Part shown: one piece after another, positions 17,928 to 51,700 of the stretch
How positions within the stretch are numbered: position 1 is the first letter of the stretch
How the letters are laid out: each line of letters starts with the position of its first letter
Position numbers and translations under genes: made by a program
DNA from: Naegleria gruberi
Taxonomy: Eukaryota
Assembly: GCA_000004985.1 (NCBI GenBank)
Contig: GG738873.1
Strand: one strand, 5' to 3'
DNA: 64,000 bases
Notes under the pieces: model-generated
Database searches by the model: none
Seen by the model: only the letters and a program-made list of their open reading frames with translations
What the model was told of the DNA's origin: nothing

Positions 17928-20900
17928 TTATACCCAAGTATTATAGCTTACACCTCTTGTTATAAAATCACCAATATCATCTTCTTCTGCATCCATATTA
18001 AAGTCCTCTGTGGTTGTTGTAGGTGTTGAATCAATTGAAGAGTTGGTGTTAATTTTTTCGAATAAATCTTGTAAAGTGCTATCTCTACTTGTGTTATTAT
18101 CGTAAAATACATATTTTCCAACATTATTTTTCTTTTTTCTTCTAATAAAATACCATCCAACACCAGCTACAAGAGTGGCACAAAACGCTACCACCAAGAG
18201 TAAACCAATTGAGCCACCTACAATGTAAGGTAAATAATCAATTTGAGTGAGTGAGAAGTCTGATTTTGCACAAGTGACACAAACTTCCATCATACTACTC
18301 ACAGTTAATTCAGGAATTTGAGAGATGCCAGAAAGTAATTGAGCGCATGAAAAAGCTTGTCCAATTCCAAATTGATATCCAGTTGGTTTGGCAAGAATTT
18401 TGGAATTATCAGAAACAAAATTAAGACTACAATCAATCATATCAAGATTAATATTTTTCAATTCCCATTTCGTTCCCTTCTCTGTTAATTTCATTGAAAT
18501 TCTGTAAGAAACACCTGAACTGAATAAACAAGAGGCGGATGATTTCATTCCACTTGATAATTCACCTCCTGATAAAACTTGTTTTCCATTTTCAAAAGAT
18601 AATCCACCAAAGAATGTTCCATTATTCTTTTTAGAAATCCAAAATTCAATTAAATTACCATTTTCAATATTTGAGAATGGTGATAATTTAAAATCAAGTG
18701 ATACAATATTACTGATATCATGTAAATCTGATGATGCAACAACTTGTCTAATTGGTTTGTCTGTACATTTTGATTTGTTCAATTTACCAATATTCATTTT
18801 AATGATCAAAGGTGGTTGAACTGTTTCAGTTGTTTCTTGTCTTTGAATGATTGGAGGTGTTGTATCTTGATCTGGAATATCTTCTGGAGGTGAAATACTT
18901 GTATCAAATTTATCCAAAGAAGTAACTTTTACAACTTCTGGATCAACATATCTGATAAATAATTTGGTATCATAATTACTCGAAATTGAATCTTGAATCA
19001 AAGCTGCTCTTATATTCATTATGGAATCACTTGTTCCCAATAATGGAAGTTTAGCTGAACAAAATGTTGAATTGAGAACTGTGCATGCAATTTGAGTTTC
19101 TTCAGTGGAATATTGTTGACGAATGAAAAGATTGACATTATTGGTTGGTGGGAAGAATGTTGCCATTGCAAGAATCCTATCACCAAAATAAGCTTGTTTT
19201 GGTAAAACTTTCAATAAATCAAATCTATACAATGTCAATTCGGTATCGGTTGAAATTGGTATTGGATCTGATGTTTCACTAATTAATTCAATTTGAACTG
19301 AAACTTTAAATGAATCCTTCATTACCAAATCTTGGGGAAAGTTGCTTATCAAATCCTTTGCATTAACGAATGGCTTGAATGTAGTTCTTGTTCTACTTCC
19401 TGAGGTTTGAACTGGTAAACGAGCAAGAATCAAATTAAGAGGATCATATTTGAGAATTAAATAAGGTCTTGTTCCTGGTAAAACATAATTTCCTTCCAAA
19501 TAAATTGGAATTGAACCAGTCACTGGAACATATAATGGATAAATCTTTCTAATAGATAAAACTGTTGCCTCACTTTGATCATTATTAATATAAGCAATAG
19601 GTTGGAATTTTGTTAATTGAGTACTTTGATCAAAAACTGATGAATCTGGAGTTAATTGAGAAACTGCAATAATCAAAGATACATCTGTATTCACATTGGT
19701 CACTGTAATCTTTTCAGTATCTTTCGTGAGAACAACCAAATCATTCTTATTAACAACAAAGTTTGAATCTGAGGCTAATTCATTGAATTCTGGACTTGAT
19801 GAATCAATATCTGGAACAATTGTACTGATAGTTGTTGTTTGTTGATCACTCGATAATAAATATTGATCTGGATGATCATATAAAACAAGTGTAAAATATT
19901 TCTGAGTACTTTGAGGAATGACAATTTCTTTTGGGGTTTCATTTGGTGCTTCAATATTAACTGATACCAATAAACTTGAATTTGAAGTTCCTTCTTTGAA
20001 GAAGGTGAATGTTGTTGTATTGGTTGATGGATTGAAAACTTGATTTCCTTTATCAATATCTGTGAATGAAATTGGTCCCTTATCAAAAACTGATGAAATA
20101 TTTGCTTCCTTACTTGATGTATCAATTTCCAAGATTGTAACATTCGTTGAATTATCTTTCAATGTGATACCAAGTAAATCACCATTTGGATTATCAATAA
20201 TTTTGACAAGACCATATGTTGCATTATCCATTGTATTTATAATTGGAATAATCATTTGAGTTGCATTACTGAACTTGTCAATCTTCCAAATAATTAAAGA
20301 ATTTGGAATCTTACTCTTATATAATAAGGTATCAAAAGTTAAAAATTTGTCACCACTTTCAGTATTTACATCTGTTGTAATAGTGTAATATTTCAATAAA
20401 TTACTATTAGTAACATTGGATGGAATACCTTCTAATAAAGTTGTACTTTGTAATATCAAAGATTTACCACAAACAGTATCCATCAACGATTTTTGTAAAT
20501 AAATGTTAGAATCTATCACTGTGATTTGTTCTGCTGGTACAAATGAACCTTTACACAATTCAGTTGTGGTTTGATATTGACATAATTGACCAGTAAATCC
20601 ATCATGACATTTACACAAGTTACCTTCAATACATTTACCATTTCCTCCACAAACACTTGAATTAATTCCAGGTGTACCAAAACAAACTGGAATGGAGCAA
20701 TTCAATCCAATATAATTCTCCAAACATGAACAAGTATCATTTGAAATACAAATTCCATTTCCAAAACATGTTAAATTAGATGTTTGTTCAACACCAAAAC
20801 AGTACGTTTTAGGAATTGATGGAGCTGTTGGATCATTATTTCCAGAATTAGATGTTGGTGTTGTAGTATTAAGAGTTTCGTTTGGAGTAAAATGATTAGA

Positions 20901-23900
20901 ATCAATTGTTGAATTAGATGCGTTACTTGAACTGGTTGAATTGTTAGAACTCTGAGAAGTATTAGATCCATTATTTGAACTGGTTGAATTGATAGAATTA
21001 TTAAATCCATTATTTGATTCAGTAGTATTGTTGGATGAATTTGAGCTATTGTGTGATAATGTAGAATTGTCAGACATTGAAGTAGTACCATTAACTTGAC
21101 TGGAATTATTGCCTGTTGGTGACGAATCGTCAATTGTACTGTTATTAGAATTATTAGAACTATTGGTATTACTATTTGAACTATTGGATACACTTGGATA
21201 TGAGTTATTCATTGAATTAGAGATGGTTGAATTATTAGTTTGTGAAGAAGTATTATTAGAAACTAGAATTGTACTATTTGAACCATAGTTGGTTTCATTG
21301 GTGGAATTAGAAGTATCATAATTGGAAGTTGAGTTATTCAAGACATTGGAGGAAAGATTTGATGAATTCTGAGAAGTGTTGTTACTATTAGTAAATGTTC
21401 CATTACTTGTATTGATAGTAGTAGAATTAGAAGTAATAGTAGAATAGTTTCCATTAGAATTAGTAATATTACTTGTAGAACTATTTGTAGAAATGTTACT
21501 AAAATTCAAAATATTAGATGAATTATTCGATAGCGATTCAGTTGTGGAATTGGATATCACACTTGATTGATTTGAATGACTACTTCCATTATTGATATTA
21601 CTTGTTGAATTAGTTGTGTCAATAATTGAATTATTACCACTACTTGTTGAATTATTTTGATTAATAGTACCATTTATACCATGATTATCAATAGAGGTAA
21701 TGTTTGATGAGTCAGAGTTGTTCAGCAATGAACTGTTACCATGAGAATTAGTTACATTAAATGTTCCATTACTTGAATTATTGACAGTAGAATTAGAGTT
21801 ATTTCCATTCGAATTAGAATTATTGGTAATGTTGGAAGAATAAATAATGGATCCATTTTGAACACTTGTTTGATTCTTGTTGAGAGTTTCATTAAAAACA
21901 TTGGTTGTGTTTGTAGCTCCATTACTTGTTGAATTATTTTGATTAATAGTACTATTTATACCATGATTATTTGTTGAATTGGAATTATAATTCCAGGTAG
22001 TATTATCATTACTTGAATTATTGAGAGTAGAATTAGTGAAATTAGAATAACTATTCGTTGTAGAACTATTGTAAGAAGAATTAATGGTCGAGTTAGACGT
22101 TGCATTATTGTTTGTGGAATTTTGAATCATTGTGTCATTACTCATTGATGTATAGTTATTAATAGTATTGCTACTATTTACATTAATTAGAGAGTTTGTA
22201 GAATTAATTGTTCCGTTTTGAATTGTTGTGGAGTTATGTCCTTCACTTTCTTGATTAGTATTGTTGGTATTAGTACTATTGGAAGAATAAATAATAGACC
22301 CATTTTGAACACTTGTTTGATTCTGGATGATAGTTTCATTAACAACATTGGTTGTGTTTGTAGAATTAACCGTTGCAGAATCAAGTGATGTATTGGACGA
22401 ACCACTTTGATTCTTAATAGTTTCGTTGTAATTACTCGTCTGATTAAGCGTTGAATTTGTTGAACTTTCGCTTGTGTTATTAAGACTTTCTGAACCAGTT
22501 AAATTTGATACCACCTGAGAAGTGTTTAAACCATCAGTTGATGTTTCATTAATACCAATAGTATAGTTTGAATCTTGAGTGCTATTTTTAAAATTGGTAG
22601 AAGAGGTAACATTCATAACTAGAGTTGAATTGAGTCCACTATTTGATGTATCATTTCTATTGTTTGAAATGGAAGTTTGATTACTTGAAACAGTATTATT
22701 ATTTTCAAGAGTTTGATTATTTGTCATGGCAGTGTTATTTGAAACAGTATTATTAGAACCTAATGTATCTACTATTCCTGTACTATTTGTTTCATTTTTT
22801 CCAAAGATTGTTTGGTTATTTGAAATGTTAGTTTGATTATTCAATGAGGTATTGTTTGATGAACTGATAGAGGTATTACCACCTAATTGATCTGTATTAT
22901 TTTGTAAAGTGCTAGAATTAAAGTTAATGGTGCTATTAGAAATGTTACTGCTATTTGATATAATTCCATTCGAAGAATTTGAATTCAAATATGAGGATGA
23001 ATTATTTTCAAGAGTTTGATTGTTTGTGATAGCAGTGTTATTTGAAACAGTAGTTCTGGATTCTCCTGTGCTATTTGTATCATTGTTTCCACTATCAGAG
23101 AAGGTTTCTGTGTTATTGTTTGAAGAAGTGTCATTTGTTGAATCGCTGCTTGTACAATTAGTAGAGCCAGTAGAGGTTCCTGAAAGTGAACTATTTGATG
23201 ATGTTGTGTTTTGAGAGCCCAATGTTGAATTGTTACTTGCTGTATTAGATACTGTCTGATTATTACTTCCTTCAGAATTTTTGTCCACATCATTGCTACC
23301 CTTACTAATGGAGGATTCATTAGTTTTAACTTGATATATAGCATCATCAAAATAGAGTGTTTTAGGGTTTGGCAATAAAACTGTGTTGATCTTTCTTTCA
23401 ACTGGTTCAATTAATTTATCAGAAGGTGTAAGTATACTTGAACCATCAGCTTGTGAAATAACTATAGCATTATCAGTTTGGTAAACTCTTGTAGAATTTT
23501 TTAAACTCATCTTTGTGTTATTATAATACATAGCTAGTTCAGTATCTGAGGAAGTCCCATTAACTACAACTGAATAGAAGAAAGATCCCTCTTCATTAAC
23601 CACTACAACACTTTCATCAAAACCATCAAAGATAAAGAAGTAAGGAATTGCATTTGGGTTATTTGCTATTTTAAATGATGAAACAGTGTTTGAACCTCCA
23701 GTTAATGATAATTTTTGAATGGTTTGAACTTGTGATTTACTCTCTTCGATAATTGGCATGTAAAATTCTAAAACACCATTCTTTCTAAGAAGAGGAGTAC
23801 CATATCTTATTTGCTCTGGTGTAAAGACACCTGGACAGTATGAATATCTAAATGGTACATTAAAGTCATTTGGGAGATAATAATAAACAATCAATTGATT

Positions 23901-26900
23901 TCCATCCAAAACTAACGCATAGAAGTCTTCTCCACTTGAAAGAATTCTCGATGTGGCGTTATTTGTTGGAATAGTGAGAGTCACATTTACAGGAACAGGG
24001 CTTGTGGGGTTTACAATAAATACATTAGGCACTGGTTCATCAATTAAGGAAGTATCAATAGTGATAATAGCCGTATCATTCATTTTCTGGGTTTTCACTA
24101 ACTTATCGAGAAAAGAATCTGTAGTGCCTGGCATTGGTCTAGAAATAGTCAATTCTGTAAGATTTTGTTTCTTGTAAGTGAAATAGTAGCCGCAAACACT
24201 AATTTTTCTTATAGTTAAAGTTAGTAAAAACTTGCTATTATACTTCTTTTCAAGATTGAGAACAAAATCTTCAAACTGACCATCGGGAGTACATATAACA
24301 CTTCCATTAGAACCAGTAGAGTTGGATGATCCATTTGAGTTGTAATATGTTGTTGTGTTGGAACTTTTTGAATTGTCTACGTAACTCGAATTGTTTGTTG
24401 AGTCAAGATGAATAGGTGTGTTGCCACATGTTGTACAATTAGTTATTGTTGTATTGTCATATGTACAATTAGTAGTTGTGTTGTCAAATGTTGTACAATT
24501 AGTAGTATTATCATTGGCAACAGGAGGAATCTTAATAACATATTTTTCACTATCATAAAAATAGTAGGAAGGAGGTGGCAAGTCTGGTGATTTCTTTTCG
24601 TTGGATGATAGATCACTTGGGGAAATAAATAATATTTGGCTAGTTTGAAATGCATAAACAGTAACGAACTCGTTATAGTAAATACCAATGGATATATCTG
24701 TTTGGAATGCGGTAAGTAAATATCTTTCTGTAGCAAATGAAAAATGTTCCCAAGGCCAAGGGATTGTTGCCAATTTACGTACTTCGAAAATCTGAGATAG
24801 AGAGTAGACATTAATGCCCTTTTCACTGTATGTAATTATTCTTTCCTCTGTACCATTAAAAATTGAGAAATATGGTATTATCTGTGGATCATTGGATATT
24901 GTAAAAAAATCCAATTTTTCATCATATTGATTCAAGGATAGAATAAGAATAGTTTGATTTGATCCTTCCTCGATAATTGGCATGTATACATTGATTGTGC
25001 CGTCACTTCGTACTATAGGTTGTCCGTATCTTATTAGGTCTGGAGTGAACAGTGTATTACTAATTGAGGAAGATTTGTATTTCTGCTTATCTGAGTTAAA
25101 TCTTTCTATTAATAGATTGTTGTCATTCAAATTCAATACAAAATACTGAAGACCGTTGCTTAGTAACCTTAATGATCTTGGAGAGTTTGTTGGACCTCCA
25201 GTGGTTAAATAGTTTTGAAGATGTAATTCTTGTAGAGACCAGATTCCTATTGGAGAAATAGATGAAATGTAAAAGACAGGTTGTGTAGATAGGTCATAAC
25301 TTGCCCATGACTGATCAACGGTAACCAATAGTGAGCCTTTGAATACCTGGTATGTAATGAGCTTATCCTTAAATGACTCATAAGAAACAGGATTGTTTTT
25401 AAATTTGGAAAGTCTTTTTTGCTCTGAGCTACTGGTTTTTTTTGAAGAACTGGTAGTAAAATTAATAACAATAGGTTCCATTGTGTAACTAAGGTCAGCC
25501 TCAAAATTTGTTTTAAGCCCAATATAACCACCCAAAAGGACTACTGTTGTATCTATTATCTGACATGAAACACCATAATATGGTGTCTTACATTTACATT
25601 TTTCCGTAATCTCATCACAATAACCATTTCCACTACAAACCAGAGAACTGTTTCCACTAATTCCCCTGCATGTTACCTCGTAGTCACACTTATCGCCTTT
25701 AAAAAACTTATAACAATTGCAGGTATCGTTTTTCGTGCACGAACCATGGCCACTACAAACTGTTGGATCAGCTGATTCTTTCCCAAAACACATTACAATG
25801 GGTTTGTTGAATATTTCTGACGGGGTGGAATATTTTGGAGAGTATTTCAAACCACCTAATGATCCAATAAATTGCCACAAAAACCCATCCTTGAAATTTC
25901 TTCCAATAGAAGCACTTTGAACTACTTTGTCAACAGTTGCGTTGGCTGAAAGAGTTATATTAGTGGATAAATAGCCTTGGTAGCTATAAACACGAGTCTC
26001 GAAAGTGTCAGTACCGTCCATATTTTGGTTTCTAGTAATCGTTACTTGATATGTACTGTTGACTTTAAGGTTTGGATCCAAAACCATACTTTTTCCTTCT
26101 GCAATAGGTGACAAATCCACAACCAAAAACTTTTCTGAGCTAATGAAAACTTTGAATCGGTTTACATAATCAAAAAGGGTCATAGCAGATTCAAGTGACA
26201 ACGGAGAAAAGTAGAAATTGAATGTAAACTCACCACTAAGTAGCAAGTAAATATTTGGATCCGTAATTGAGCAATACGAGTCTTCAGAAAGGGAAACAGA
26301 GAAGTCATTATCAAGGCCAGGAGTGAGCTTTACATTTTCACAAGGAAAAGAAGCACCAGTAAGTTTGTCAACCAGATACAACTTAACTGGCTCTCCCTTA
26401 TAAGAATCGCTTGCTGAAGAAGGTACGCTAAAATATGAGCTGTGAGCTGGAACTCCGTAATAAATGGCTTGCCCTATTCGAAATGATTCAGATTGGCAGC
26501 TTACATCGTTGAAAAAATCAATAATATTAGAACAAAAAGGACCATCATGCAAGTAACTGTACATAAGTAGAGTCTCCTTAGTATAATCTAATTTGTTGTC
26601 TAACATATCGTAACAATAACCGTCCTGTTTCATATTACAAAAATTACCCACTCTAGATCTTGTCGAGGTTGGTTTACATTCACTATCTGGTGAATCGCCA
26701 GTGTTTTCACATTGGCAAACATCTTGATCAGTACAAGTTCCTTTTCCGCTACACACTCCAGGCTCATCAGCAAAAATACCAAAACATGATTTTTGAGAGC
26801 TAGTCTGTAAAATAAGTGACAACTTTTCAATTTGAACATGTGGCTCTATGACAAACATGCTTGAGTTACTAATGAAATTTACAAACGAATCCAAAGAGGA

Positions 26901-27473
26901 GAATGAATTAATACGAGAATTAATGTATCCATTAAGATTCAAATACACGCTGTTCTGATAAATAGTTACTTCCAAATAATTATTAAAACTACCAGAGACG
27001 GACTCGATGGATATCCACTCATTACCATTAAATAAACTCAGGACAATTTTGAAATTGGCCATATCAATTTTTAAAACTGGATTTGATAAAACTGAACAAT
27101 CTCCATCTGAGGTTGTAAAGTTCAATGCAAAAGTCTCTGCCTTAATAATGTTCAACATGTCAATATTTGATGATATTACAATTCCTCCATTACTCGCAGT
27201 ATCATTTCTTAGATATTTACTTTCAACATTTCCATTATTATAGTTCAATCTGTTCCATATCCAAGACTGAACATCCAAATCAAATTTGTAATATATGTTT
27301 CCAGTAGAAGCGCCTTCAACAACACTCAAATTTCCCAATAACATTAAGGCTTGTAAACAGCACAATGTCATAATGATCAGCAGCAAACCACCATTCCTAT
27401 TCGCATGCCAACGCGATGAAGAGTTAATTTCATCTCCTCGCATTGTTGAAACATGCAACTGTTGGCTTTTCAT
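17928..27473 (-). CDS. Giant type I membrane glycoprotein, about 3180 aa and apparently intronless. It has a signal peptide, scattered EGF-like Cys modules, an internally duplicated domain of about 110 aa, an Asn/Ser/Thr sequon-saturated region of about 900 aa, and one TM helix. Its short cytoplasmic tail is conserved with the giant gene at 48788-64000
   Basis: First ATG at 27473 ('MKSQQLHVSTMRGDEINSSSRWHANRNGGLLLIIMTLCCLQALMLLGNLSVVEGA'). EGF-like 'CFGVEQTSNLTCFGNGICISNDTCSCLENYIGLNCSIPVCFG...'. TM 'IVGGSIGLLLVVAFCATLVAGVGWYFI'. Tail 'RRKKKNNVGKYVFYDNN...LQDLFEKINT...TTTT..DAEEDDIGDFITRGVSYNTWV'. Confidence 0.8.
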   Translation of the reverse strand: MKSQQLHVSTMRGDEINSSSRWHANRNGGLLLIIMTLCCLQALMLLGNLSVVEGASTGNIYYKFDLDVQSWIWNRLNYNNGNVESKYLRNDTASNGGIVISSNIDMLNIIKAETFALNFTTSDGDCSVLSNPVLKIDMANFKIVLSLFNGNEWISIESVSGSFNNYLEVTIYQNSVYLNLNGYINSRINSFSSLDSFVNFISNSSMFVIEPHVQIEKLSLILQTSSQKSCFGIFADEPGVCSGKGTCTDQDVCQCENTGDSPDSECKPTSTRSRVGNFCNMKQDGYCYDMLDNKLDYTKETLLMYSYLHDGPFCSNIIDFFNDVSCQSESFRIGQAIYYGVPAHSSYFSVPSSASDSYKGEPVKLYLVDKLTGASFPCENVKLTPGLDNDFSVSLSEDSYCSITDPNIYLLLSGEFTFNFYFSPLSLESAMTLFDYVNRFKVFISSEKFLVVDLSPIAEGKSMVLDPNLKVNSTYQVTITRNQNMDGTDTFETRVYSYQGYLSTNITLSANATVDKVVQSASIGRNFKDGFLWQFIGSLGGLKYSPKYSTPSEIFNKPIVMCFGKESADPTVCSGHGSCTKNDTCNCYKFFKGDKCDYEVTCRGISGNSSLVCSGNGYCDEITEKCKCKTPYYGVSCQIIDTTVVLLGGYIGLKTNFEADLSYTMEPIVINFTTSSSKKTSSSEQKRLSKFKNNPVSYESFKDKLITYQVFKGSLLVTVDQSWASYDLSTQPVFYISSISPIGIWSLQELHLQNYLTTGGPTNSPRSLRLLSNGLQYFVLNLNDNNLLIERFNSDKQKYKSSSISNTLFTPDLIRYGQPIVRSDGTINVYMPIIEEGSNQTILILSLNQYDEKLDFFTISNDPQIIPYFSIFNGTEERIITYSEKGINVYSLSQIFEVRKLATIPWPWEHFSFATERYLLTAFQTDISIGIYYNEFVTVYAFQTSQILFISPSDLSSNEKKSPDLPPPSYYFYDSEKYVIKIPPVANDNTTNCTTFDNTTTNCTYDNTTITNCTTCGNTPIHLDSTNNSSYVDNSKSSNTTTYYNSNGSSNSTGSNGSVICTPDGQFEDFVLNLEKKYNSKFLLTLTIRKISVCGYYFTYKKQNLTELTISRPMPGTTDSFLDKLVKTQKMNDTAIITIDTSLIDEPVPNVFIVNPTSPVPVNVTLTIPTNNATSRILSSGEDFYALVLDGNQLIVYYYLPNDFNVPFRYSYCPGVFTPEQIRYGTPLLRKNGVLEFYMPIIEESKSQVQTIQKLSLTGGSNTVSSFKIANNPNAIPYFFIFDGFDESVVVVNEEGSFFYSVVVNGTSSDTELAMYYNNTKMSLKNSTRVYQTDNAIVISQADGSSILTPSDKLIEPVERKINTVLLPNPKTLYFDDAIYQVKTNESSISKGSNDVDKNSEGSNNQTVSNTASNNSTLGSQNTTSSNSSLSGTSTGSTNCTSSDSTNDTSSNNNTETFSDSGNNDTNSTGESRTTVSNNTAITNNQTLENNSSSYLNSNSSNGIISNSSNISNSTINFNSSTLQNNTDQLGGNTSISSSNNTSLNNQTNISNNQTIFGKNETNSTGIVDTLGSNNTVSNNTAMTNNQTLENNNTVSSNQTSISNNRNDTSNSGLNSTLVMNVTSSTNFKNSTQDSNYTIGINETSTDGLNTSQVVSNLTGSESLNNTSESSTNSTLNQTSNYNETIKNQSGSSNTSLDSATVNSTNTTNVVNETIIQNQTSVQNGSIIYSSNSTNTNNTNQESEGHNSTTIQNGTINSTNSLINVNSSNTINNYTSMSNDTMIQNSTNNNATSNSTINSSYNSSTTNSYSNFTNSTLNNSSNDNTTWNYNSNSTNNHGINSTINQNNSTSNGATNTTNVFNETLNKNQTSVQNGSIIYSSNITNNSNSNGNNSNSTVNNSSNGTFNVTNSHGNSSLLNNSDSSNITSIDNHGINGTINQNNSTSSGNNSIIDTTNSTSNINNGSSHSNQSSVISNSTTESLSNNSSNILNFSNISTNSSTSNITNSNGNYSTITSNSTTINTSNGTFTNSNNTSQNSSNLSSNVLNNSTSNYDTSNSTNETNYGSNSTILVSNNTSSQTNNSTISNSMNNSYPSVSNSSNSNTNSSNNSNNSTIDDSSPTGNNSSQVNGTTSMSDNSTLSHNSSNSSNNTTESNNGFNNSINSTSSNNGSNTSQSSNNSTSSSNASNSTIDSNHFTPNETLNTTTPTSNSGNNDPTAPSIPKTYCFGVEQTSNLTCFGNGICISNDTCSCLENYIGLNCSIPVCFGTPGINSSVCGGNGKCIEGNLCKCHDGFTGQLCQYQTTTELCKGSFVPAEQITVIDSNIYLQKSLMDTVCGKSLILQSTTLLEGIPSNVTNSNLLKYYTITTDVNTESGDKFLTFDTLLYKSKIPNSLIIWKIDKFSNATQMIIPIINTMDNATYGLVKIIDNPNGDLLGITLKDNSTNVTILEIDTSSKEANISSVFDKGPISFTDIDKGNQVFNPSTNTTTFTFFKEGTSNSSLLVSVNIEAPNETPKEIVIPQSTQKYFTLVLYDHPDQYLLSSDQQTTTISTIVPDIDSSSPEFNELASDSNFVVNKNDLVVLTKDTEKITVTNVNTDVSLIIAVSQLTPDSSVFDQSTQLTKFQPIAYINNDQSEATVLSIRKIYPLYVPVTGSIPIYLEGNYVLPGTRPYLILKYDPLNLILARLPVQTSGSRTRTTFKPFVNAKDLISNFPQDLVMKDSFKVSVQIELISETSDPIPISTDTELTLYRFDLLKVLPKQAYFGDRILAMATFFPPTNNVNLFIRQQYSTEETQIACTVLNSTFCSAKLPLLGTSDSIMNIRAALIQDSISSNYDTKLFIRYVDPEVVKVTSLDKFDTSISPPEDIPDQDTTPPIIQRQETTETVQPPLIIKMNIGKLNKSKCTDKPIRQVVASSDLHDISNIVSLDFKLSPFSNIENGNLIEFWISKKNNGTFFGGLSFENGKQVLSGGELSSGMKSSASCLFSSGVSYRISMKLTEKGTKWELKNINLDMIDCSLNFVSDNSKILAKPTGYQFGIGQAFSCAQLLSGISQIPELTVSSMMEVCVTCAKSDFSLTQIDYLPYIVGGSIGLLLVVAFCATLVAGVGWYFIRRKKKNNVGKYVFYDNNTSRDSTLQDLFEKINTNSSIDSTPTTTTEDFNMDAEEDDIGDFITRGVSYNTWV
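20800..23300. repeat. Low-complexity coding DNA inside gene 17928-27473, encoding about 850 aa of near-continuous N-x-S/T sequons (Asn about 30%, Ser about 30%, Thr about 15%) with internal imperfect tandem repeats
   Basis: The translated segment 'NSTNNNATSNSTINSSYNSSTTNSYSNFTNSTLNNSSNDNTTWNYNSNSTNN...' shows recurring units such as 'NQTSVQNGSIIYSSN(I/S)TN'. Confidence 0.8.
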
Positions 27474-28961
27474 CTTGTGGCGCGACAACGGTTTATCTAC
27501 AGTTGAAGTGTTGGTTGTTCTTTTCTGTATAGTTTGTTATGAGAATTTTTTAAAAGGTGATATTGATTTTTTGGGTTGATATTTGGGTCTCTGTTCAGAC
27601 ATGTTTGAGCGCACTAAGGTGATGGATCACCGAGATCTGGAAAGATACTAAGCGCGAGCCTTATCATGCGTGGATTTTGGTGTGAGGCTCAACAAACTCT
27701 TTCAATTGCTGCATTGTTGTGAATGGTCTAGAATGATAACGTCCACTTCAAAAAAGGTCTATTCATTACAGTGATTACCGTAAATTGAGACACAAATCCT
27801 CACGCAACAACTGTTGCACATCAGCTAATAGCAGCAATACATTTTGATTCAATGGAGAATATTTAAAATTATGATGAATTTGATTTGATCCGAGGGATCA
27901 CGTTGCAGTTTCTCAATTTTTTCATCTAATAATATTTCCATGTGAATACTTTCAATGATGATTTTGTTGATGATCTTTAATCCTATTGTTGCTCTCTTAA
28001 GTCAGCTCATTCAATGAAATTAATGCTCATCTAGATAGATTATTACAATTTTTTCATCTTTAATTCTTTACATCAAAATATTTGACGATTTTTTGATATG
28101 GAAAGAAAAGTGATGAGTGAAATTTGATGATTTTAAAAAAATATTTTAACAAGAAAAATTTCATCAAATTCGCAACATGTTTCATCATGGATGATTTTCA
28201 AAGGCAATTCTTCATCACTTCCAAAACCATTTTCAACACAACATGATACGATCATTTGGAATGTATAGAAATTAATTTTATTAAATTTCAACATGAATTT
28301 CAAATTTTAAAAGGCAATGATTAAATTGATGGCGAGTCTTGTTCAATTGGAGAGGTAAAATTCACTTTATTGAATGATAATCATCAGAAATATAACAAGT
28401 AAATGGATGCCATTCTTTTACTTGAAATAGAATTTCATCAATTTATTAATTTTAATATTTTCATCATGAAAAACATCAGACAAGACAATAAGAAGACGAT
28501 GGGCATGTTCTAAATGTTCATTAACATCACCTCAGAAAGTTTCAAAACTTTCCATCAAGCACATGTAGAGTTGGAGAAGATAAAGTAAAATTTAATTTCA
28601 TCAAAGTGAAAAACACTTTTTGGTAAACCTGTTCAATTTCAAGAGGAGGCACAAGATTTGTTATTGTACCACATCATAAAGAATGTTTTGCCAATGTTTT
28701 TCGATTATTTTCCAGAGATGATAAAGTTGAATTTTCACATGCTTCCAAACATTATTCATTCATTATTTACTTGATAAATCTTCATCAGGACAATAATAAA
28801 TACATCACTTGGATGTTATCTAACATTACTATTCATCTCATTGTTTCACTCCAAAAGTTTTCCAAGATATCCAACAATCCTCCCAACAAGAATATTTTAC
28901 CATCATATTTCCAGCAAAGAGTTGTATGAATTTGATTTGTCTTTCACATTTTGATAAGAAT

Positions 28962-30464: not shown

Positions 30465-30545
30465 TGCAGAAGGTGGGATTTGAACCCACGAAGCTTGCGC
30501 AGTAGAACTTGAGTCTACCCCCTTTGACCACTCGGGAACCCCTGC
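30465..30545 (-). tRNA. tRNA-Leu (anticodon CAA) with a long variable arm
   Basis: Minus-strand sequence 'GCAGGGGTTCCCGAGTGGTCAAAGGGGGTAGACTCAAGTTCTACTGCGCAAGCTTCGTGGGTTCAAATCCCACCTTCTGCA'. Acceptor stem GCAGGGG/CTTCTGC, anticodon stem GTAGA/TCTAC with loop CT-CAA-GT, T-arm GTGGG-TTCAAAT-CCCAC, and a variable arm of about 12 nt. Confidence 0.85.
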
Positions 30546-32285: not shown

Positions 32286-32903
32286 ATGGTTGAAGCTACA
32301 TGTTTTGGATTATTGGCCAGCAATCCGAGGGTTTGTTCAGGTAATGGAAATTGTACATATTTAAACTTTTGTGATTGTCAAGACGGTTGGGATGGTAATC
32401 AGTGTCAAGCCTTAACAGCAATTGATATTAGAGAAGTAATGTTTGGATTTTCAATTACTGGTCCAATATTAGCTGTTATTATTTCAATCTTACTGTGCAT
32501 TCCCTTCATTATTTATATTAGGAGAAGGAAGAAGCAAGAGGAAGCAAGGAAATCAGCATCAGCTGCTGCTGGTAGTAATGTAGATACAAATTCCTCTTCC
32601 GATAGAGTGATAAGGTTTAGTGGACGAGGAAAGAGTAATAGTAATGCAGGTGATGATATTCAACGATCGCCCACCCATGCCTATCTTAAACCTCATCCTT
32701 TCACATTGGGTCGATCACACAGTGAGAGAACTGACCGATCTGATGATATACTTATTGGCAAATCAAAAAGTCCTCCTCCTTCAAGCATATCATCATTGGG
32801 AAAGACAAGGAGAGAATTGAGTGGAAGCTTTTCTGAGCCTAAAACACCAAAGAGTCCAAAAGATACTTCCAACATACTGAACGATGAAATGAATCAAGTT
32901 TAA
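32286..32903 (+). CDS. Small single-pass membrane protein: a single EGF-like module, a TM helix and a basic, Ser-rich cytoplasmic tail. It has no signal peptide, so it is possibly a fragment derived from the EGF/TM giant-gene family, or an upstream exon is missing
   Basis: 'MVEATCFGLLASNPRVCSGNGNCTYLNFCDCQDGWDGNQCQ' then TM 'VMFGFSITGPILAVIISILLCIPFIIYI' then 'RRRKKQEEARK...'. The 3' end overlaps the convergent gene 32900-35800 by 4 bp. Confidence 0.4.
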   Translation: MVEATCFGLLASNPRVCSGNGNCTYLNFCDCQDGWDGNQCQALTAIDIREVMFGFSITGPILAVIISILLCIPFIIYIRRRKKQEEARKSASAAAGSNVDTNSSSDRVIRFSGRGKSNSNAGDDIQRSPTHAYLKPHPFTLGRSHSERTDRSDDILIGKSKSPPPSSISSLGKTRRELSGSFSEPKTPKSPKDTSNILNDEMNQV

Positions 32904-38775: not shown

Positions 38776-40404
38776 ATGAATTTGTCATCAAACACCTTAA
38801 TATTATCAATCCAACTATGCTTTTTATTATGTTTCATTGGTGTTGTGATGGTGAACGGTTTAGAGTGGAATGGTCAAATTAAAATTGAAAATAGTGTTAC
38901 CATTCCGGTTGGTGAAAATTTGGTGATTAAGGAAGGTGCTGTGGTGAGCTTTGCTCCAACTACCTCAGCAAGTGGACAAATTTTGATAAGAGTGGAAGGT
39001 AGATTGAATATTGAATCGGGAGTTGAACTAAAAAGTGATGATATTTTGAATAATCAGAATGGTACAAATGACCAGTGGGGTTTCTTATTCCCTATTGGAA
39101 CCCAACAAGGTTCTTTAACATTAACAAATTCAAAGATTAGGAAGAGCTCTCCACTCTCCTCTGGAGTGGCAACTTTTTCATTTGAAGGAGGAGATAATTC
39201 AACAGGAATTGTTTTGGATAATTGTGAAGTGGATGGTGGTTTTATTGGCATTCATGTTTCGAGTAATATTGTCATTTCAATCAAATCAAGCTCTTTCTCT
39301 AACATGATATCAGCAGTTCAAACTGACAAGACATCCTTCCCTAAAATGACATTTTTTGATTCCAAATTCACTGGAATGGGTATTGCCATTGATGATAGAG
39401 GTATTTCATCAAACGGTGATTTGGTTTATAGAACCATCTCACTGACAGATTGTAAATTTAAGAGTGTCAGTCGTGCCATTAGTGCAAGCTGTAAGGTGGT
39501 TGTGTCTAGCAATGTATTTCAAGCATTTAGAGGAGCTATCACTGCACCATTTGTTCATTGTACCAATTCCATATTTGATAATAGACAATATATAGTATCT
39601 GCACTCGGTCTATATATTTCAAATATTCCTCAAGGTTATAAGGGAGAAGTTTTCATTAAGGATTCAACATTCTCTGAAATTACAGGCTCAGTCTTTGGAT
39701 CTCAAGGAGATGTTGTCGATTTCACATTTGTGAATAACATTGTGAGAAATTGTGCCACCTCTGCTGGTTTGAAAACTCGTCACTCCTTAATTGAAATGGC
39801 TGCAATTACTGGATCTGTCTCTATTACCAAGAATGACTTTGTTGGAAATCAAATTGTTGCTGGTTCAAGTGCCATACTCTCTCTGCATCAACTCCAATCA
39901 TTGGCTTATATTACCCACAATAATTTCCATGATAATAATATTAATACTTGTACTGTCAAAATGTCAAATGTACCAGATGCTTTGGGAGTATTGACCTTCT
40001 CACAAAATACATTTACCAATTACTTTGGAAGCAAATCTGAGATTGCAACAGAGTTTTGCTATGAAGGACCTTTAGGCAAAAAGATAAATATTGCCTACAA
40101 TTATTGGGGAACTGACCCAACCAGTATGGATGCAACTCAAATGTACGATATGATCATTTCAAAGTTGAAGCCACTCGATGCTCTTGAATTCACTCCATAT
40201 TATTTGACTTCCAATGTGGATGACCAAAGTTCAACCAATCTTGGTGGTCTCCACAAGCCAATCAAACCAAACTCTAGTATTATTGCAACAGTTATTGGAG
40301 GATTATTCGGAGGAATTACACTAGTTCTTTTCATCTCTATGATTATTGCTGTCACTGTAATTCTCATCCGAAGAAGAAGGAAAGGATATGAAAGTTTGAT
40401 ATAA
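38776..40404 (+). CDS. Type I membrane protein: signal peptide, right-handed parallel beta-helix (pectate-lyase-like) ectodomain, a TM helix, and a short basic tail ending RRRRKGYESLI (YxxPhi-type motif). 542 aa
   Basis: 'MNLSSNTLILSIQLCFLLCFIGVVMVNG'. Periodic beta-helix-type repeats rich in G/N/S/T/V/I ('IVLDNCEVDGGFIGIHVSSNIVISIKSSSFSNMISA', 'FVNNIVRNCATSAG', 'ITKNDFVGNQIVAGSSAI'). C-terminal TM 'IIATVIGGLFGGITLVLFISMIIAVTVILI'. Confidence 0.65.
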   Translation: MNLSSNTLILSIQLCFLLCFIGVVMVNGLEWNGQIKIENSVTIPVGENLVIKEGAVVSFAPTTSASGQILIRVEGRLNIESGVELKSDDILNNQNGTNDQWGFLFPIGTQQGSLTLTNSKIRKSSPLSSGVATFSFEGGDNSTGIVLDNCEVDGGFIGIHVSSNIVISIKSSSFSNMISAVQTDKTSFPKMTFFDSKFTGMGIAIDDRGISSNGDLVYRTISLTDCKFKSVSRAISASCKVVVSSNVFQAFRGAITAPFVHCTNSIFDNRQYIVSALGLYISNIPQGYKGEVFIKDSTFSEITGSVFGSQGDVVDFTFVNNIVRNCATSAGLKTRHSLIEMAAITGSVSITKNDFVGNQIVAGSSAILSLHQLQSLAYITHNNFHDNNINTCTVKMSNVPDALGVLTFSQNTFTNYFGSKSEIATEFCYEGPLGKKINIAYNYWGTDPTSMDATQMYDMIISKLKPLDALEFTPYYLTSNVDDQSSTNLGGLHKPIKPNSSIIATVIGGLFGGITLVLFISMIIAVTVILIRRRRKGYESLI

Positions 40405-43261: not shown

Positions 43262-45053
43262 ATGTTCAACTCTGTCGATAAAAGACAAGGCAATCATCTA
43301 TCCGAATTTGATTATGGATACGAAGCCTCCAGTCCAACAAGTCAAACCAATGAACAATCCTACTATACTAATACCAATACTACCACCAATAACAATAACA
43401 ACAACAATAATGGATCGGACGACGAAGGTGGTGATGATACAGTCGACATGACCTTCTCTCAACTCTACGAAATGATGAAGCAACAACCTGTTGAAAACAT
43501 TCCCGCCAATATTTTACAAACCCTCTCAAAAAAAGATTTGGTCTTGTGTGAGTTGAGGCGAGAGGGCATGAATCCACAATTTAAAAGGGATGCTGAATAT
43601 TGGTACAATACATTGAGTGTATTTACTCATCAATCGAATCAAGATGTTATTATGAGTGATTTTTCATTGGCTAGTAATATTACTGAAAAATTTGAATTAA
43701 TTGCTTTGGAAAAGAAGAGAATTGATATTTTGAGAAGAATGTTTATAGTGTTACGTTATGGAGATTTATTATATAGAAAATCAAAGAAAACTAATGATTG
43801 GATGCCTTGGAGTGAATTGAAGGGTTTACCAATTGCTACTGCCATGTCACATGGTTCTAGAATTATTATTCAATTACCTAAATCTGCAATGGCAGCTGAA
43901 AAGAAGGGAATCTTTTCAAAATTAAAGAATACACTTCGACCAAAGGATGAAAGCTCTCACGATCATGGTTTTTGGACTTGGTTATTGTGTGGTGATGAGA
44001 ATGGTAGTTTGGAAATGGTAGTCACTCCAGAAACAACAAATGGAAGTGTAAGTTTTAATATTTCTATCAATAATTTAATAATTATTATGTAAACTACTAC
44101 TATCAATGAAATTTAAATGTCATTTTGATGATATTAATTCACACAATATCACACACTCACTAAATACATATTAATCATTGTGCTAAATACATATTAATCA
44201 TCATATGATGAACATTAATTTTATAATACAATATAATTAGGAAGCTGCAAAGAAAGGATATTTATTATTTAAAAGAACAGCAGCAACTCACAGTTTAGGA
44301 TATTATACAGACGAAATTAAAGATGAAGAATCACCATCTTCACCTGCAGGTGGTAAAAAGAAGAAGGTCAAACAATTGAGAAGAATCACTGCTAACTATA
44401 CCGATCAAAACAATCAAAGGGGAACAATGAAAAAACTCAAGGATATTATTGAAATTAAGGAAAAACTAGGATTGAATACCAGAAATTCCAAACTCCTCGG
44501 AAGCAAGGAAGAAGTTATGCTCAAACACAGACATTGGGGACTCAACGTTTCAATGAGTGGATTTGGTAAAAAACTTCCAGTATTTTTACCTTATAAGGAA
44601 GCTAAAAAAGCAAGAAAAAAAGGACCAAAGAAGGGATCAAAAGTTTCATACACAACAGTTGAACCAACTGGTGAACATTCACATATTTATCTTTACTACA
44701 TGTCACCAGGACCAAAGAGGTATGGTGGCATTATGATTGGTGTTGAAGGTTCTGAACCAGGTAAGAAAGACCAATCTGGAGAACACCACGGCATAACCGC
44801 TGGTTCACCTTTTATTGGTGTGACAGATGGCATGAAGTGGAATAAGATTAAGGATATGGGTATGGAAGAATATCCTGACAAGTATGACTCACTCTTTATT
44901 GACTTGTCATCTGGATGGGAATTTTTGAAAGATAAAGTAAATGAGTGGCGAGATGAAATGGTTTTTGAAACTATTTACATTAAACCAGCTCAAGAAGCCG
45001 AAGAAGAAGCTCAATTCAAGGAACAACAATATATTGAAGATGAGGATGAATAA
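43262..45053 (+). CDS. Hypothetical protein of about 534 aa with an Asn/Thr-rich N-terminus. Two exons: join(43262..44047, 44241..45053), with a 193-nt AT-rich intron
   Basis: Donor 'agt|gtaagttttaat' at 44048, acceptor 'caatataattag|gaagct' at 44239-44240. Exon 2 is in frame ('EAAKKGYLLFKRTAATHSLGYYTDEIKDEE...') and continues into ORF 44376-45053 ending 'FKEQQYIEDEDE'. Confidence 0.6.
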
Positions 45054-45305
45054 ACTATGTAAAATATTTCTGTATTTGTATGATATCTTTATGGTAATTT
45101 AACAACGTTTTCAATTTGGTAAGTTTGAGCGAAATTGCGAAATGCAACATAGGACAAAATTTCGAATAGGATTGCCTTCATGATGGCTTTAACATGTGTT
45201 TATAGGATGTGAAAGGAAACATCGAAATGACCTTATCTGATTCTCTCGCCATAATTCAGTTTCAACCCACACAACAATCTGGCTTCAAAAAAAATATACG
45301 AAACT

Positions 45306-46094: not shown

Positions 46095-47002
46095 GATAAC
46101 AAAAAGAAGGAGCGGATTATCAGTTCAAATGAGTTGGAGCACATTTTGTTTGCTTTTTGTGGTTCAAATTGGAAGATTACAGTAGCATGCATGCAACTTC
46201 TTCTTCAATGTAAAATTTCAAATAACAAATAAGGAAGTACATGCATTTATACAAAAATTTTTTTTTTCAAAGGAAACGAAAATTTTACAAACCATCAACT
46301 TGATTGAATAGCTATACATCATTAAGATTATCAAATATCAATCAAATTACCAACAAAATTCATTCAAAAATTCACCAATCACACACAAACTTTACTAATA
46401 GAAAATTACATTACAAAAAATATGAGAAACACATTCACTTTTTTATCCGTTCTAAAGATGGAACATTAGAGTATTTAATAAACTCCTGAAATTAAACTCC
46501 CATCTCACAAATTAACATCTGAGAGTTTTATTTGAAATTAAGGTAATTGAGCGAGTTGGAATTTTGTGAAGGAAGGTGTACTGAATTTTAGAAGAGTAGT
46601 AATGGTCCAATTTTCCCACTCAAGGTTTAAAAACTATTGTTTTCAATACATTTTTTAATTCTTTTATCAATTTTTTACAATTTCCAATTAGAAAACATGT
46701 TTTCTTCCAATTGAGTTCCAAGTAGAAACCATTTGGAAATCTAATAGCGCTTAAAAAATTCGCAATTTAAAAAAAAATTGAATGAAGCAACGGCCATCTT
46801 TTTAAATTTTTATCATCACGTAGAATTTATTTGATTTTTTAAAACATAACCTTCTTTGAATGCTGCTGTTTTCCTCTTCTTGTAGAGAACAAATAATTTA
46901 ATAGTAGTAGTATCTTCCGCCACTTTTGTAGTGGAGATTGAATCATCCGAATCTTCATCATCACACAATATATATAATTTCATCTTGTTAATAATAACAA
47001 TA

Positions 47003-48013: not shown

Positions 48014-48113
48014 AAGCAAAATTGTTTTATCAAAATTCTCCACTCTCTAATTGTTCAACAGGAAAGATAATTCTCTCTAAATAATAATACAAGTAATAAT
48101 GTGACAAAATAAG

Positions 48114-48740
48114 TTAGTCCATTATTTGATCTCCATCATAAAGTGGACGATACTTGTGCACTTGGCTATTCTTTCTTGTCACTACAATCCTCAAAATTCC
48201 ACACACAAATAAAGGTACACAACAACAAATTAACAAGGTACAAGCAACACCAACAAAACTCGAATAGTATAGCACTGAAAATTTGTACGTTTTCAATGCT
48301 GCTTGATCATCCTTTGGTTGTGTCGTGTTTAGCACACTGTCTAATTTACTGCCATATCCTCCTATTAAACAAGTCATGGCCATCAATGAGAGTAGTATTG
48401 AAAATGTCCACACATAGGCACAAATAGAAAAGTAACGTGTAGAATTTAATGAAGCTGTACAATCCACTACTGATACCATTCCAACAATACTCATCATTAG
48501 AAAGAATGACACGGCAACAAACTCAAAAACTAGCAACATGGTACCATACTGTTTGTCATTCAATTCTAATAATGTCTTTCCTTCCACAATTAAAACTATC
48601 AACGAAATCAAATATCCTAGAGAAGATAAAAACACAATCAAACAACCAACAAGCGTGCATAGTATGGATAGTGTTGTTGCTTTGTGTTTTGTGTTAATGC
48701 TACTTGTCGGAACGTTGAGCATTTTTTTAATGGTTATCAT
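48114..48740 (-). CDS. Small four-TM membrane protein of 208 aa with tetraspanin- or claudin-like topology; family uncertain
   Basis: Four hydrophobic segments: 'LSILCTLVGCLIVFLSSLGYLISLIVLIV', 'MLLVFEFVAVSFFLMMSIVGMVSVV', 'FSICAYVWTFSILLSLMAMTCLIGG', 'FSVLYYSSFVGVACTLLICCCVPLFVCGIL'. Confidence 0.5.
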   Translation of the reverse strand: MITIKKMLNVPTSSINTKHKATTLSILCTLVGCLIVFLSSLGYLISLIVLIVEGKTLLELNDKQYGTMLLVFEFVAVSFFLMMSIVGMVSVVDCTASLNSTRYFSICAYVWTFSILLSLMAMTCLIGGYGSKLDSVLNTTQPKDDQAALKTYKFSVLYYSSFVGVACTLLICCCVPLFVCGILRIVVTRKNSQVHKYRPLYDGDQIMD

Positions 48741-48787
48741 TTAACATTTGACATTGATTGAAATAAATGATATTTATTTAATAAAAA

Positions 48788-51700
48788 TTAATTCCATACA
48801 GCATAACTATTAACCATAACATTAGGATCTGCATCATCATCATCAAATTCTGGCATAACATTTGTTGTTGTTGCTGTAGATGAGGACATTTGATCATCAG
48901 AAGAATTCATCTTATCAAACAAGTCATTCATTGCATCTTGTAAATCATCTCTGTTGTGGGCATAATCATAAACAGAATACTTGCTACTTCTCATCTTCTT
49001 TCTTCTGTAATACCAAATACCAGCAACAACGAATACCAATACTGTAACTATTAAAATAATTGCAACTGCACCAGAAATTGCTCCAGCAAGAATGGTTGTA
49101 ATATTGGAGGATTCCATGTTAGGTAATAAAGTGGCATGGGCAACACACTTTTGAACTTTACAAGCAGCCACAATATTGTACAAATCTGTTTCAATGTTAA
49201 TGGTTGGCTTATTTAGAATTTGAGTACAAGTTACACTACTTTCCAACCTTAATGTGTAATTATGAGAGAACTTTTCAATAAATTGAGGGTAAGTGATTGG
49301 GAGAATAAAAGAGTTAGAATTACAAATGGCATCTCCATTGCTGTCCTTGATTGTGTAAGAGAGAGTGGCTTTCCAATCCTTATAATCTTGAGAGGACCAT
49401 TCAGAATAATCTAATTGAGAGAAACTGTGTGTAACCTTCATATCTAACTTCATATTTTCACCTTCTTTAAAGTCACAACGAGTAGATATATTTTTGGTTT
49501 CAAATGAATGTACCCAAGTTACTTCAGAATAAAGANNNNNNNNNNNNNNNNNNNNNNNNNNNNNNNNNNNNNNNNNNNNNNNNNNNNNNNNNNNNNNNNN
49601 NNNNNNNNNNNNNNNNNNNNNNNNNNNNNNNNNNNNNNNNNNNNNNNNNNNNNNNNNNNNNNNNNNNNNNNNNNNNNNNNNNNNNNNNNNNNNNNNNNNN
49701 NNNNNNNNNNNNNNNNNNNNNNNNNNNNNNNNNNNNNNNNNNNNNNNNNNNNNNNNNNNNNNNNNNNNNNNNNNNNNNNNNNNNNNNNNNNNNNNNNNNN
49801 NNNNNNNNNNNNNNNNNNNNNNNNNNNNNNNNNNNNNNNNNNNNNNNNNNNNNNNNNNNNNNNNNNNNNNNNNNNNNNNNNNNNNNNNNNNNNNNNNNNN
49901 NNNNNNNNNNNNNNNNNNNNNNNNNNNNNNNNNNNNNNNNNNNNNNNNNNNNNNNNNNNNNNNNNNNNNNNNNNNNNNNNNNNNNNNNNNNNNNNNNNNN
50001 NNNNNNNNNNNNNNNNNNNNNNNNNNNNNNNNNNNNNNNNNNNNNNNNNNNNNNNNNNNNNNNNNNNNNNNNNNNNNNNNNNNNNNNNNNNNNNNNNNNN
50101 NNNNNNNNNNNNNNNNNNNNNNNNNNNNNNNNNNNNNNNNNNNNNNNNNNNNNNNNNNNNNNNNNNNNNNNNNNNNNNNNNNNNNNNNNNNNNNNNNNNN
50201 NNNNNNNNNNNNNNNNNNNNNNNNNNNNNNNNNNNNNNNNNNNNNNNNNNNNNNNNNNNNNNNNNNNNNNNNNNNNNNNNNNNNNNNNNNNNNNNNNNNN
50301 NNNNNNNNNNNNNNNNNNNNNNNNNNNNNNNNNNNNNNNNNNNNNNNNNNNNNNNNNNNNNNNNNNNNNNNNNNNNNNNNNNNNNNNNNNNNNNNNNNNN
50401 NNNNNNNNNNNNNNNNNNNNNNNNNNNNNNNNNNNNNNNNNNNNNNNNNNNNNNNNNNNNNNNNNNNNNNNNNNNNNNNNNNNNNNNNNNNNNNNNNNNN
50501 NNNNNNNNNNNNNNNNNNNNNNNNNNNNNNNNNNNNNNNNNNNNNNNNNNNNNNNNNNNNNNNNNNNNNNNNNNNNNNNNNNNNNNNNNNNNNNNNNNNN
50601 NNNNNNNNNNNNNNNNNNNNNNNNNNNNNNNNNNNNNNNNNNNNNNNNNNNNNNNNNNNNNNNNNNNNNNNNNNNNNNNNNNNNNNNNNNNNNNNNNNNN
50701 NNNNNNNNNNNNNNNNNNNNNNNNNNNNNNNNNNNNNNNNNNNNNNNNNNNNNNNNNNNNNNNNNNNNNNNNNNNNNNNNNNNNNNNNNNNNNNNNNNNN
50801 NNNNNNNNNNNNNNNNNNNNNNNNNNNNNNNNNNNNNNNNNNNNNNNNNNNNNNNNNNNNNNNNNNNNNNNNNNNNNNNNNNNNNNNNNNNNNNNNNNNN
50901 NNNNNNNNNNNNNNNNNNNNNNNNNNNNNNNNNNNNNNNNNNNNNNNNNNNNNNNNNNNNNNNNNNNNNNNNNNNNNNNNNNNNNNNNNNNNNNNNNNNN
51001 NNNNNNNNNNNNNNNNNNNNNNNNNNNNNNNNNNNNNNNNNNNNNNNNNNNNNNNNNNNNNNNNNNNNNNNNNNNNNNNNNNNNNNNNNNNNNNNNNNNN
51101 NNNNNNNNNNNNNNNNNNNNNNNNNNNNNNNNNNNNNNNNNNNNNNNNNNNNNNNNNTTTCTTTTGGTAAATCCAATGTTTGATGCAGTCTTCTTGATTA
51201 CATTCAACTTGATGAATGTATTCTTAACTGTATTCACAAGGTAAATAATATCGTCAACTTTAACAATACTGATCTTGTCAGAGTATTCGGAAAATTGAGA
51301 AATACTTGATGGGTAATTAGCAATTTGTTCAAACTTCATAGAATCTGTCCATAGATTGGTTTTGGAATCTTGTTGAGTAACATTTGCAATAAAGATCTTT
51401 GTTCCTTGATCAGTAATGGTGGCAATCAATATCTTGATACCTGAGGCTTCAGTAGCAGAGATTAGCGCTCTAGCGTTAGAAACTGCGTCCTTGTTTGGGA
51501 ATTCAACAGTTGATATGATTCTAACTCTAGCATCGAAGAAAATAAGGGTTGGTGTTAAGGTATATCTATTACTAGCTGTAAAGACAATTGAAGTAGTATT
51601 ATCAACAACAATATTCAAATCCTTAACTGTTTCTCTGTTGAATGTATGATTGTACAATCGTTTGTTGTCGTATAGGGTTGTCTTGATAATACTGTTTCCT

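Follow-up and report, generated by a model that had tools for sequence, protein, structure and literature searches.

In other systems, acidic clusters are found alongside sorting signals, and the tyrosine-based signal YXXPhi usually carries L, I, M, F or V at its Phi position, a list on which Trp does not appear. The motif, also written YXXO, is defined by a bulky hydrophobic residue at that position, with Leu as the best fit, and a conforming sequence is not predictive by itself (PMC2133128). The TRAP-family adhesins have a different kind of tail: it is acidic, its C-terminal Trp is conserved, and these features define the family (PMC4427158). Here we describe two genes of Naegleria gruberi that encode giant predicted surface proteins with similar C-terminal ends, and compare these ends with the tails of such systems. 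Both genes lie on the same strand, ~21 kb apart, in a 64,000-nucleotide stretch of contig GG738873.1 (GenBank assembly GCA_000004985.1; hereafter the window), a low-GC eukaryotic scaffold with a coding GC content of 30–37%. By exact look-up of HMMER library matches, gene 1 is NAEGRDRAFT_68488 / XP_002676241 (3171 amino acids) and gene 2 is NAEGRDRAFT_58267 / XP_002676246 (5396 amino acids in the public model), and both are annotated as "predicted protein." An initial annotation of this DNA had described the two tails as alike and as ending in a tyrosine sorting signal that might be read by a common adaptor. We find the tails to be homologous, and we think it fairly probable that these paralogous type I giants share a lineage-specific anchor cassette whose tail docks one shared cytosolic partner.

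A C-terminal cassette shared by two giant proteins

The transmembrane (TM) segment and tail of gene 1 aligned with those of gene 2 at 33% identity over 99 amino acids (BLASTP, E 2e-13). Both tails, ...GWYFIRRKKKNNVGKYVFYDNNTSRDSTLQDLFEKINTNSSIDSTPTTTTEDFNMDAEEDDIGDFITRGVSYNTWV in gene 1 and ...GIWYYRRKKMRSSKYSVYDYAHNRDDLQDAMNDLFDKMNSSDDQMSSSTATTTNVMPEFDDDDADPNVMVNSYAVWN in gene 2, each followed by a stop codon, read as the initial annotation had quoted them, with every motif in its place. When the TM and the basic cluster were left out, the cytoplasmic part past the basic cluster had a Smith-Waterman score of 75 against 31 +/- 5.8 for composition-preserving shuffles, and none of the shuffles (n = 5000) reached 75. 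The tail-coding DNA of the two genes is ~50% identical, which rules out the recent partial gene conversion that the initial annotation had raised as an alternative and places the split between gene 1 and gene 2 far back; a third bearer of the tail, described below, was found as well.

Outside the EGF modules, the last 135–150 residues gave the sole significant match between the two proteins (gene 1 post-EGF residues 725–859 against residues 92–234 of the gene 2 fragment, BLASTP E 1.7e-10), and the rest of the non-EGF ectodomain could not be aligned. The shared cassette reaches ~55 amino acids into the ectodomain, where three Cys columns align, and is made up of a Cys-containing juxtamembrane stretch, a GxxxG-bearing TM helix and ~70 residues of cytoplasmic tail. 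Gene 1, gene 2 and a third protein, P0003, have the same elements in the same order: GxxxG in the outer half of the TM, then a basic cluster, then K[YF]x[VF]Y[DE] and (L)Q..DLF[DE]K[IM]N, and last an acidic cluster (DAEEDD in gene 1, EFDDDDAD in gene 2, FDD...SEED in P0003). The juxtamembrane RRKK is a generic positive-inside feature, and it also occurs in two unrelated TM proteins of the window (32286-32903 and 38776-40404). We infer a type I topology from the N-terminal signal peptide, the sequon- and EGF-rich ectodomain and the basic cluster that follows a single C-terminal TM.

P0003 came from a HMMER search in which a profile of the tail was run against 1.84 billion representative proteins (E <= 1e-3). 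Besides gene 1, gene 2 and P0003, this search returned one spurious bacterial repeat protein, P0004 (E 1.6e-4), a PPC-domain protein in which four weak stretches had matched and which we discarded. P0003 is an environmental, 5'-truncated protein of 269 amino acids, encoded at 2-811 of a 957-bp contig of JGI metagenome sample 3300059473. The contig continues for 146 bp past the end of the gene, so the C-terminus of P0003 should be a real stop, barring a 3' intron ahead of a Y-x-x-W exon. The tail of P0003, KKKKKRKVVSKFVVYENAYRKTELQKVMNDLFDKMNESTDFDDTIKIDVFSEEDNNIFVI, retains the basic cluster, KFVVYE, LQKVMNDLFDKMN and the acidic residues; within the LQ..MNDLFDKMN block, the nine residues MNDLFDKMN are identical between gene 2 and P0003. 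It has neither the Thr linker nor the terminal Y-x-x-W, and ends ...EEDNNIFVI.

The initial annotation had pictured a family-wide tail, which these searches did not bear out: gene 1, gene 2 and P0003 were the only bearers found in the library, with low power for diverged members, since at library size a comparison of the gene 1 tail with the gene 2 tail yields only ~31 bits (E 0.02) and equally diverged members would be missed. A six-frame hidden Markov model (HMM) scan of the window gave no third copy of the cassette, with no other match better than E ~1. Word-indexed homology searches with the tail alignment and with the last 856 amino acids of gene 1 gave no match, not even to the N. gruberi proteins, so that the index searched seems to lack this genome and its near relatives. 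A similar search with 2299 amino acids of the gene 2 EGF region returned only a JGI protein, an Acrasis kona fragment and a diatom protein, none with the tail, and scans of metagenome DNA with back-translated tail motifs gave no confirmed relative. The window also holds a small open reading frame (ORF) at 32286-32903 (+), with one EGF module, a TM and a Ser-rich tail of 127 residues that starts RRRKK; this tail is unrelated to the cassette, so the shared tail is not found on every EGF/TM protein here.

The tail has been held more tightly than the sequence beside it. Between gene 1 and gene 2, the ectodomain was 19% identical, the TM 31% and the tail 35%; between gene 2 and P0003 the values were 27%, 14% and 53%, respectively. 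In both comparisons, identity in the tail was roughly double that in the flanking ectodomain, which argues for a function in the cytosol that the tails share. Conserved columns were concentrated in the membrane-proximal 45 residues of the tail. In the AlphaFold2 model of the gene 2 cassette, the TM helix is followed by another helix that spans RDDLQDAMNDLFDKM (residues 195-209, predicted local distance difference test score [pLDDT] ~53-63), with the rest disordered. The hydrophobic moment of this predicted tail helix was high in gene 2 and in P0003 (p ~0.005), the gene 2 value being exceeded by 0.5% of shuffles.

On the reading that we favor, the cassette would have been inherited by two paralogous giant surface glycoproteins of N. 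gruberi, and purifying selection would hold the tail while the adjacent ectodomain drifts. The core would run from the basic cluster through an aromatic, strand-like K[YF]x[VF]Y[DE] to an amphipathic helix, (L)Q..(M/L).DLF[DE]K[IM]N, and strand and helix together may serve as the surface on which a single cytosolic partner, common to both proteins, docks. An adaptor for trafficking or sorting and a protein that links the membrane to the cytoskeleton are both plausible in this role. Past the helix lie a variable Ser/Thr-rich linker and the acidic cluster, followed by a terminal S-Y-x-x-W-x that is confined to the two N. gruberi proteins, and these distal parts would be accessory and faster-evolving.

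Several points weigh against this reading. The tail is known in three sequences only, which makes the conservation statistics thin, and its short length and biased composition could account for part of its higher identity. AlphaFold2 modelled the cassette with low overall confidence (mean pLDDT 47.7), and in gene 1 the helix is not significantly amphipathic (p 0.12). In gene 2, the tail is joined to the giant ectodomain only across an assembly gap, and it is likely that the two belong to the same gene. Finally, our literature search found no paper naming NAEGRDRAFT_68488 or NAEGRDRAFT_58267.

Competing readings of the tail

Naegleria possesses adaptor protein (AP) complexes in general. A homologue of the AP-5 mu subunit has been reported there (PMC3191125), and the terminal S-Y-x-x-W and the acidic cluster might together form a YXXPhi signal through which the mu subunit of AP-2, or of another AP complex, drives endocytosis or endolysosomal sorting. 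In the N. gruberi tails, Y-N-T-W and Y-A-V-W do occupy equivalent positions, five residues from the C-terminus, Trp is bulky and hydrophobic, and the definition of YXXO is degenerate (PMC2133128). We nevertheless hold this reading, in essence that of the initial annotation, to be unlikely. A regular-expression scan for YXX[LIMFV] found the canonical motif in none of the three tails and picked up only YNTW and YAVW, in the N. gruberi tails, in which the Trp is non-canonical at the Phi position and Leu would be the best fit. Y-x-x-W is not kept beyond N. gruberi in P0003, the single outside homologue, whose gene stops well inside its contig. To judge from the alignments, the conserved core is membrane-proximal and is not the terminal Y-x-x-W; even a fully conforming sequence would not be predictive by itself (PMC2133128). 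None of [DE]XXXL[LI], NPXY, the clathrin box L-Phi-x-Phi-[DE], DPF/DPW, FxDxF or NPF was found in the three tails, and the linear-motif scan yielded only a D-L-F tripeptide in the conserved helix and the acidic cluster. As to the common cytosolic adaptor proposed in the initial annotation, the conservation of the tail does argue for a shared function, but the YxxPhi/AP-2 form of the proposal is unsupported.

It is more doubtful still that the tails provide an adhesin-cytoskeleton link, with the giants acting as substrate or prey adhesion receptors that connect to actin through the acidic stretch, the subterminal Trp and perhaps the juxtamembrane strand as well, in the manner of TRAP and MIC2; the small-residue TM motif might then serve rhomboid shedding. 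An acidic cluster and a penultimate Trp are present in both N. gruberi tails (gene 2 ends ...WN), as in the tails that define the TRAP family (PMC4427158), the ectodomains look adhesin-like, with EGF arrays and a mucin-like region, and small residues or GxxxG lie in the outer half of the TM. Talin has not been found in Naegleria (PMC10846614), which leaves room for a receptor-actin link of another kind. Yet the Trp stands outside the acidic cluster, at a distance of 10–12 residues, and is missing in P0003, Pfam detects no TSR or vWA domain, and GxxxG is equally a generic TM dimerization motif; sequence homology to TRAP tails is absent, and the likeness is a putative one. We give little credence to the broader proposition that the cassette is the handle of heterolobosean substrate or prey adhesion receptors, with strand and helix or the acidic Trp end leading to actin; if true, it would be an independently evolved TRAP-like or integrin-like actin link in an amoeba without talin and integrins. 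The similarity could also be functionless, a residue of common ancestry or of gene conversion in a TM-plus-tail exon of neighboring paralogues, as their spacing on one strand would allow and as the library profile search, which detected these two N. gruberi proteins only, would fit. This, too, is improbable: at ~50% identity in DNA and 35% in protein any conversion would be ancient, the twofold excess of tail over ectodomain conservation recurs in both comparisons, and MNDLFDKMN is identical in gene 2 and P0003 while their ectodomains are 27% identical. Chance or composition, that is, TM hydrophobicity added to basic, Ser/Thr-rich and acidic low-complexity sequence, would draw on the runs of Thr and of acidic residues in the tails, but we regard it as effectively refuted, given that no shuffle reached the observed score even with the TM and basic cluster removed, that the same motif order occurs in three sequences and that the six-frame scan brought up nothing comparable in the window.

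The initial annotation had also linked the end of another protein to this signal. The 542-amino-acid product of 38776-40404 (+), a signal-peptide/TM protein without a Pfam match that the initial annotation called a beta-helix protein, does end in ...RRRRKGYESLI, yet these 11 residues, the whole of its tail, have no homology to the long tails. We take RRRRKGYESLI to be a textbook GYXXPhi, near the membrane (six residues) and C-terminal, as in LAMP-1, which makes this protein a better sorting-signal candidate than either giant. A further candidate motif, R-S-S-K-Y-S-V-Y-D-Y-A, resembles the FERM-binding RxxTYxVxxA of ICAM-2, but agreement in spacing and key residues does not extend to all three tails, and the resemblance is at most a tentative lead.

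Gene architectures and the surrounding window

The features of both genes are collected in the table below. The gene 1 ORF is uninterrupted (17928..27488, 3186 amino acids), with the public start at 27473. It encodes, in order, a signal peptide, EGF modules, a mucin-like region (Asn/Ser/Thr-rich, ~900 amino acids), further EGF modules, an orphan ectodomain of ~780 amino acids, a single TM and the tail, and EGF_Teneurin and EGF_2 are its only Pfam domains.

Coordinates of the features of gene 1 and gene 2 in the window (TM, transmembrane; AF2, AlphaFold2; aa, amino acids)
Feature	Position	Strand	Description
Gene 1	17928..27473	-	Public model, 3171 aa; from ORF and translation
Gene 1 cassette copy	17931..18380	-	Residues 3037-3186 of the 3186-aa ORF; by BLASTP and shared Cys
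Gene 1 TM helix YIVGGSIGLLLVVAFCATLVAGVGWYFI	18144..18227	-	From sequence; GxxxG (GGSIG) in outer half, by motif scan
Gene 1 cytoplasmic tail	17931..18143	-	71 aa; basic cluster RRKKK
Gene 1 KYVFYD	18099-18116	-	Tail motif
Gene 1 TLQDLFEKIN	18048-18077	-	Tail motif; followed by Thr-rich linker
Gene 1 acidic cluster DAEEDD	17976-17993	-	Tail motif
Gene 1 terminal YNTWV	17931-17945	-	Tail motif
Gene 2 giant ectodomain ORF	51158..64000	-	4245 codons, open to window edge; gene continues past edge
Assembly gap	49536..51157	.	1622 N, between gene 2 tail fragment and giant ORF
Gene 2 C-terminal fragment	48788..49535	-	248 aa, open from N gap to stop at 48788
Gene 2 cassette copy	~48791-49261	-	Within fragment 48788..49535
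Gene 2 TM helix ILAGAISGAVAIILIVTVLVFVVAGIWYY	49007..49093	-	GxxxG (GAISG); AF2 TM helix at fragment residues 145-185
Gene 2 cytoplasmic tail	48791..49006	-	72 aa; basic cluster RRKK
Gene 2 KYSVYD	48965-48982	-	Tail motif
Gene 2 predicted helix RDDLQDAMNDLFDKMN	48905-48952	-	By AF2 and hydrophobic moment; followed by Ser/Thr linker
Gene 2 acidic cluster EFDDDDAD	48827-48850	-	Tail motif
Gene 2 terminal YAVWN	48791-48805	-	Tail motif

Two runs of N interrupt the window, at 986-3123 and 49536-51157, and the second divides gene 2. The giant ORF of gene 2 contains repeated units of non-EGF and EGF sequence and a long EGF array, with Pfam matches to EGF_TEN (E 1.7e-104), EGF_Teneurin and EGF_2. The public model joins ...ISATEAS straight to DYSEWSS... 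by an "intron" that swallows the gap, and in doing so drops in-frame open coding sequence on both sides of it (49412-49534, and 51158 to ~51500). The 41 codons at 49412-49534, which adjoin the gap, are in frame and align with P0003; the public "intron" is accordingly a gap artefact, with the ORF truly entering the gap. With 1622 N between the two parts, the status of gene 2 as one gene rests on the scaffolding and on the splicing of the public model over the gap. We also noted a Pfam match to Stevor (PF17410) on the 221-amino-acid ORF at 48788-49453 (-), over residues 83-160 (27.1 bits, cut-off 25.4), and a weaker Rifin match on the same ORF. Both cover the juxtamembrane/TM segment and neither occurs in gene 1, so they are probably driven by TM composition, and we set aside a kinship of the gene 2 fragment with these families.

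The genes near gene 1 and gene 2 are of amoebal signaling type (DEP+RGS, RhoGAP, BTB, RCC1-like and GNAT), and a tRNA-Leu(CAA) gene at 30465-30545 (-) lies within a 4-kb gene-poor stretch upstream of gene 1. Toward the start of the window, the first run of N (986-3123) is an assembly gap of 2138 N, beyond which 3124-4000 has a GC content of ~14%; this run also accounts for four overlapping "ORFs" listed at 897-3165, which are spurious. Farther on, 5355-6959 (-), 7144-8595 (+) and 8677-9225 (+) hold divergently arranged paralogues for secreted or TM proteins, in which a coiled-coil-like region at the N-terminus is combined with RCC1-like repeats; the second paralogue is split over 7144-8595 and 8677-9225, probably by an intron. 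Two adjacent ORFs match the Pfam family Ntox11 (PF15521, "Novel toxin 11"), 43262-44092 (+) at profile positions 1-98 (E 2.5e-37) and 44376-45053 (+) at positions 128-293 (E 7.5e-78), and look like one Naegleria nuclear gene broken by an intron of ~280 bp or a frameshift. By eye, the C-terminal parts of 14360-15340 (-) and 9492-10376 (+) resemble the start of a fibrinogen-related domain, reading ..PTTCREYL..GNGLYIV..FPVYCDMSKGGW.. and ..PKTCREYYLN.., and 14360-15340 had no Pfam match at E <= 1e-3. The Acrasis kona EGF protein P0010 bears PF00147, which we take to be the fibrinogen C-terminal domain.

Relation to known systems

The conserved tail of two of the largest predicted surface glycoproteins here offers a bait of ~45 residues for a cytosolic partner. 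As a lineage-restricted motif seen in three sequences, it is a useful lead and not surprising in itself. The practical correction to the initial annotation is that the conserved, testable part lies near the membrane, in K[YF]xVY[DE] and the DLF[DE]K[IM]N helix, rather than in the terminal Y-x-x-W. The arrangement is a lineage-specific variant of a familiar theme, in which paralogous type I surface proteins share an anchor and a tail.

Among described systems, the tails of TRAP and MIC2 offer one comparison. Like the Naegleria giants, these proteins are type I, with a large, modular, adhesive-looking ectodomain and a single TM that has small residues in its outer half, and their short tails combine acidic sequence with a Trp close to the C-terminal end (PMC4427158), as do gene 1 (..TWV) and gene 2 (..VWN); P0003 has the acidic residues but no such Trp. 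The Naegleria proteins differ in having no sequence homology to them and no TSR or vWA domain, with only EGF-type matches in Pfam, and in a Trp that stands apart from the acidic cluster and is not kept in P0003. TRAP and MIC2, for their part, have no counterpart of K[YF]xVY[DE] or of the DLF[DE]K[IM]N helix, and belong to Apicomplexa rather than to Heterolobosea. With YXXPhi signals such as GYQTI of LAMP-1 and YTRF of the transferrin receptor, the N. gruberi tails have in common a Tyr three residues before a bulky residue near the C-terminus and an acidic cluster nearby; here, however, the bulky residue is Trp, the motif has been lost from P0003, the one homologue outside N. gruberi, and a canonical signal of any other kind is missing.

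The Sib proteins of Dictyostelium and integrin beta tails are alike in that paralogous amoebal type I proteins of adhesion type share a conserved short tail (PMC10846614), whereas the Naegleria tails have no talin-binding NPxY and the ectodomains no VWA by Pfam. With proteins of teneurin/tenascin type, finally, the Naegleria giants share strong matches of their EGF modules to EGF_TEN, EGF_Teneurin and EGF_2. This likeness concerns the type of EGF module only: the giants are anchored at the C-terminus by the cassette, their tail is unrelated, and no other teneurin domain was detected in them.

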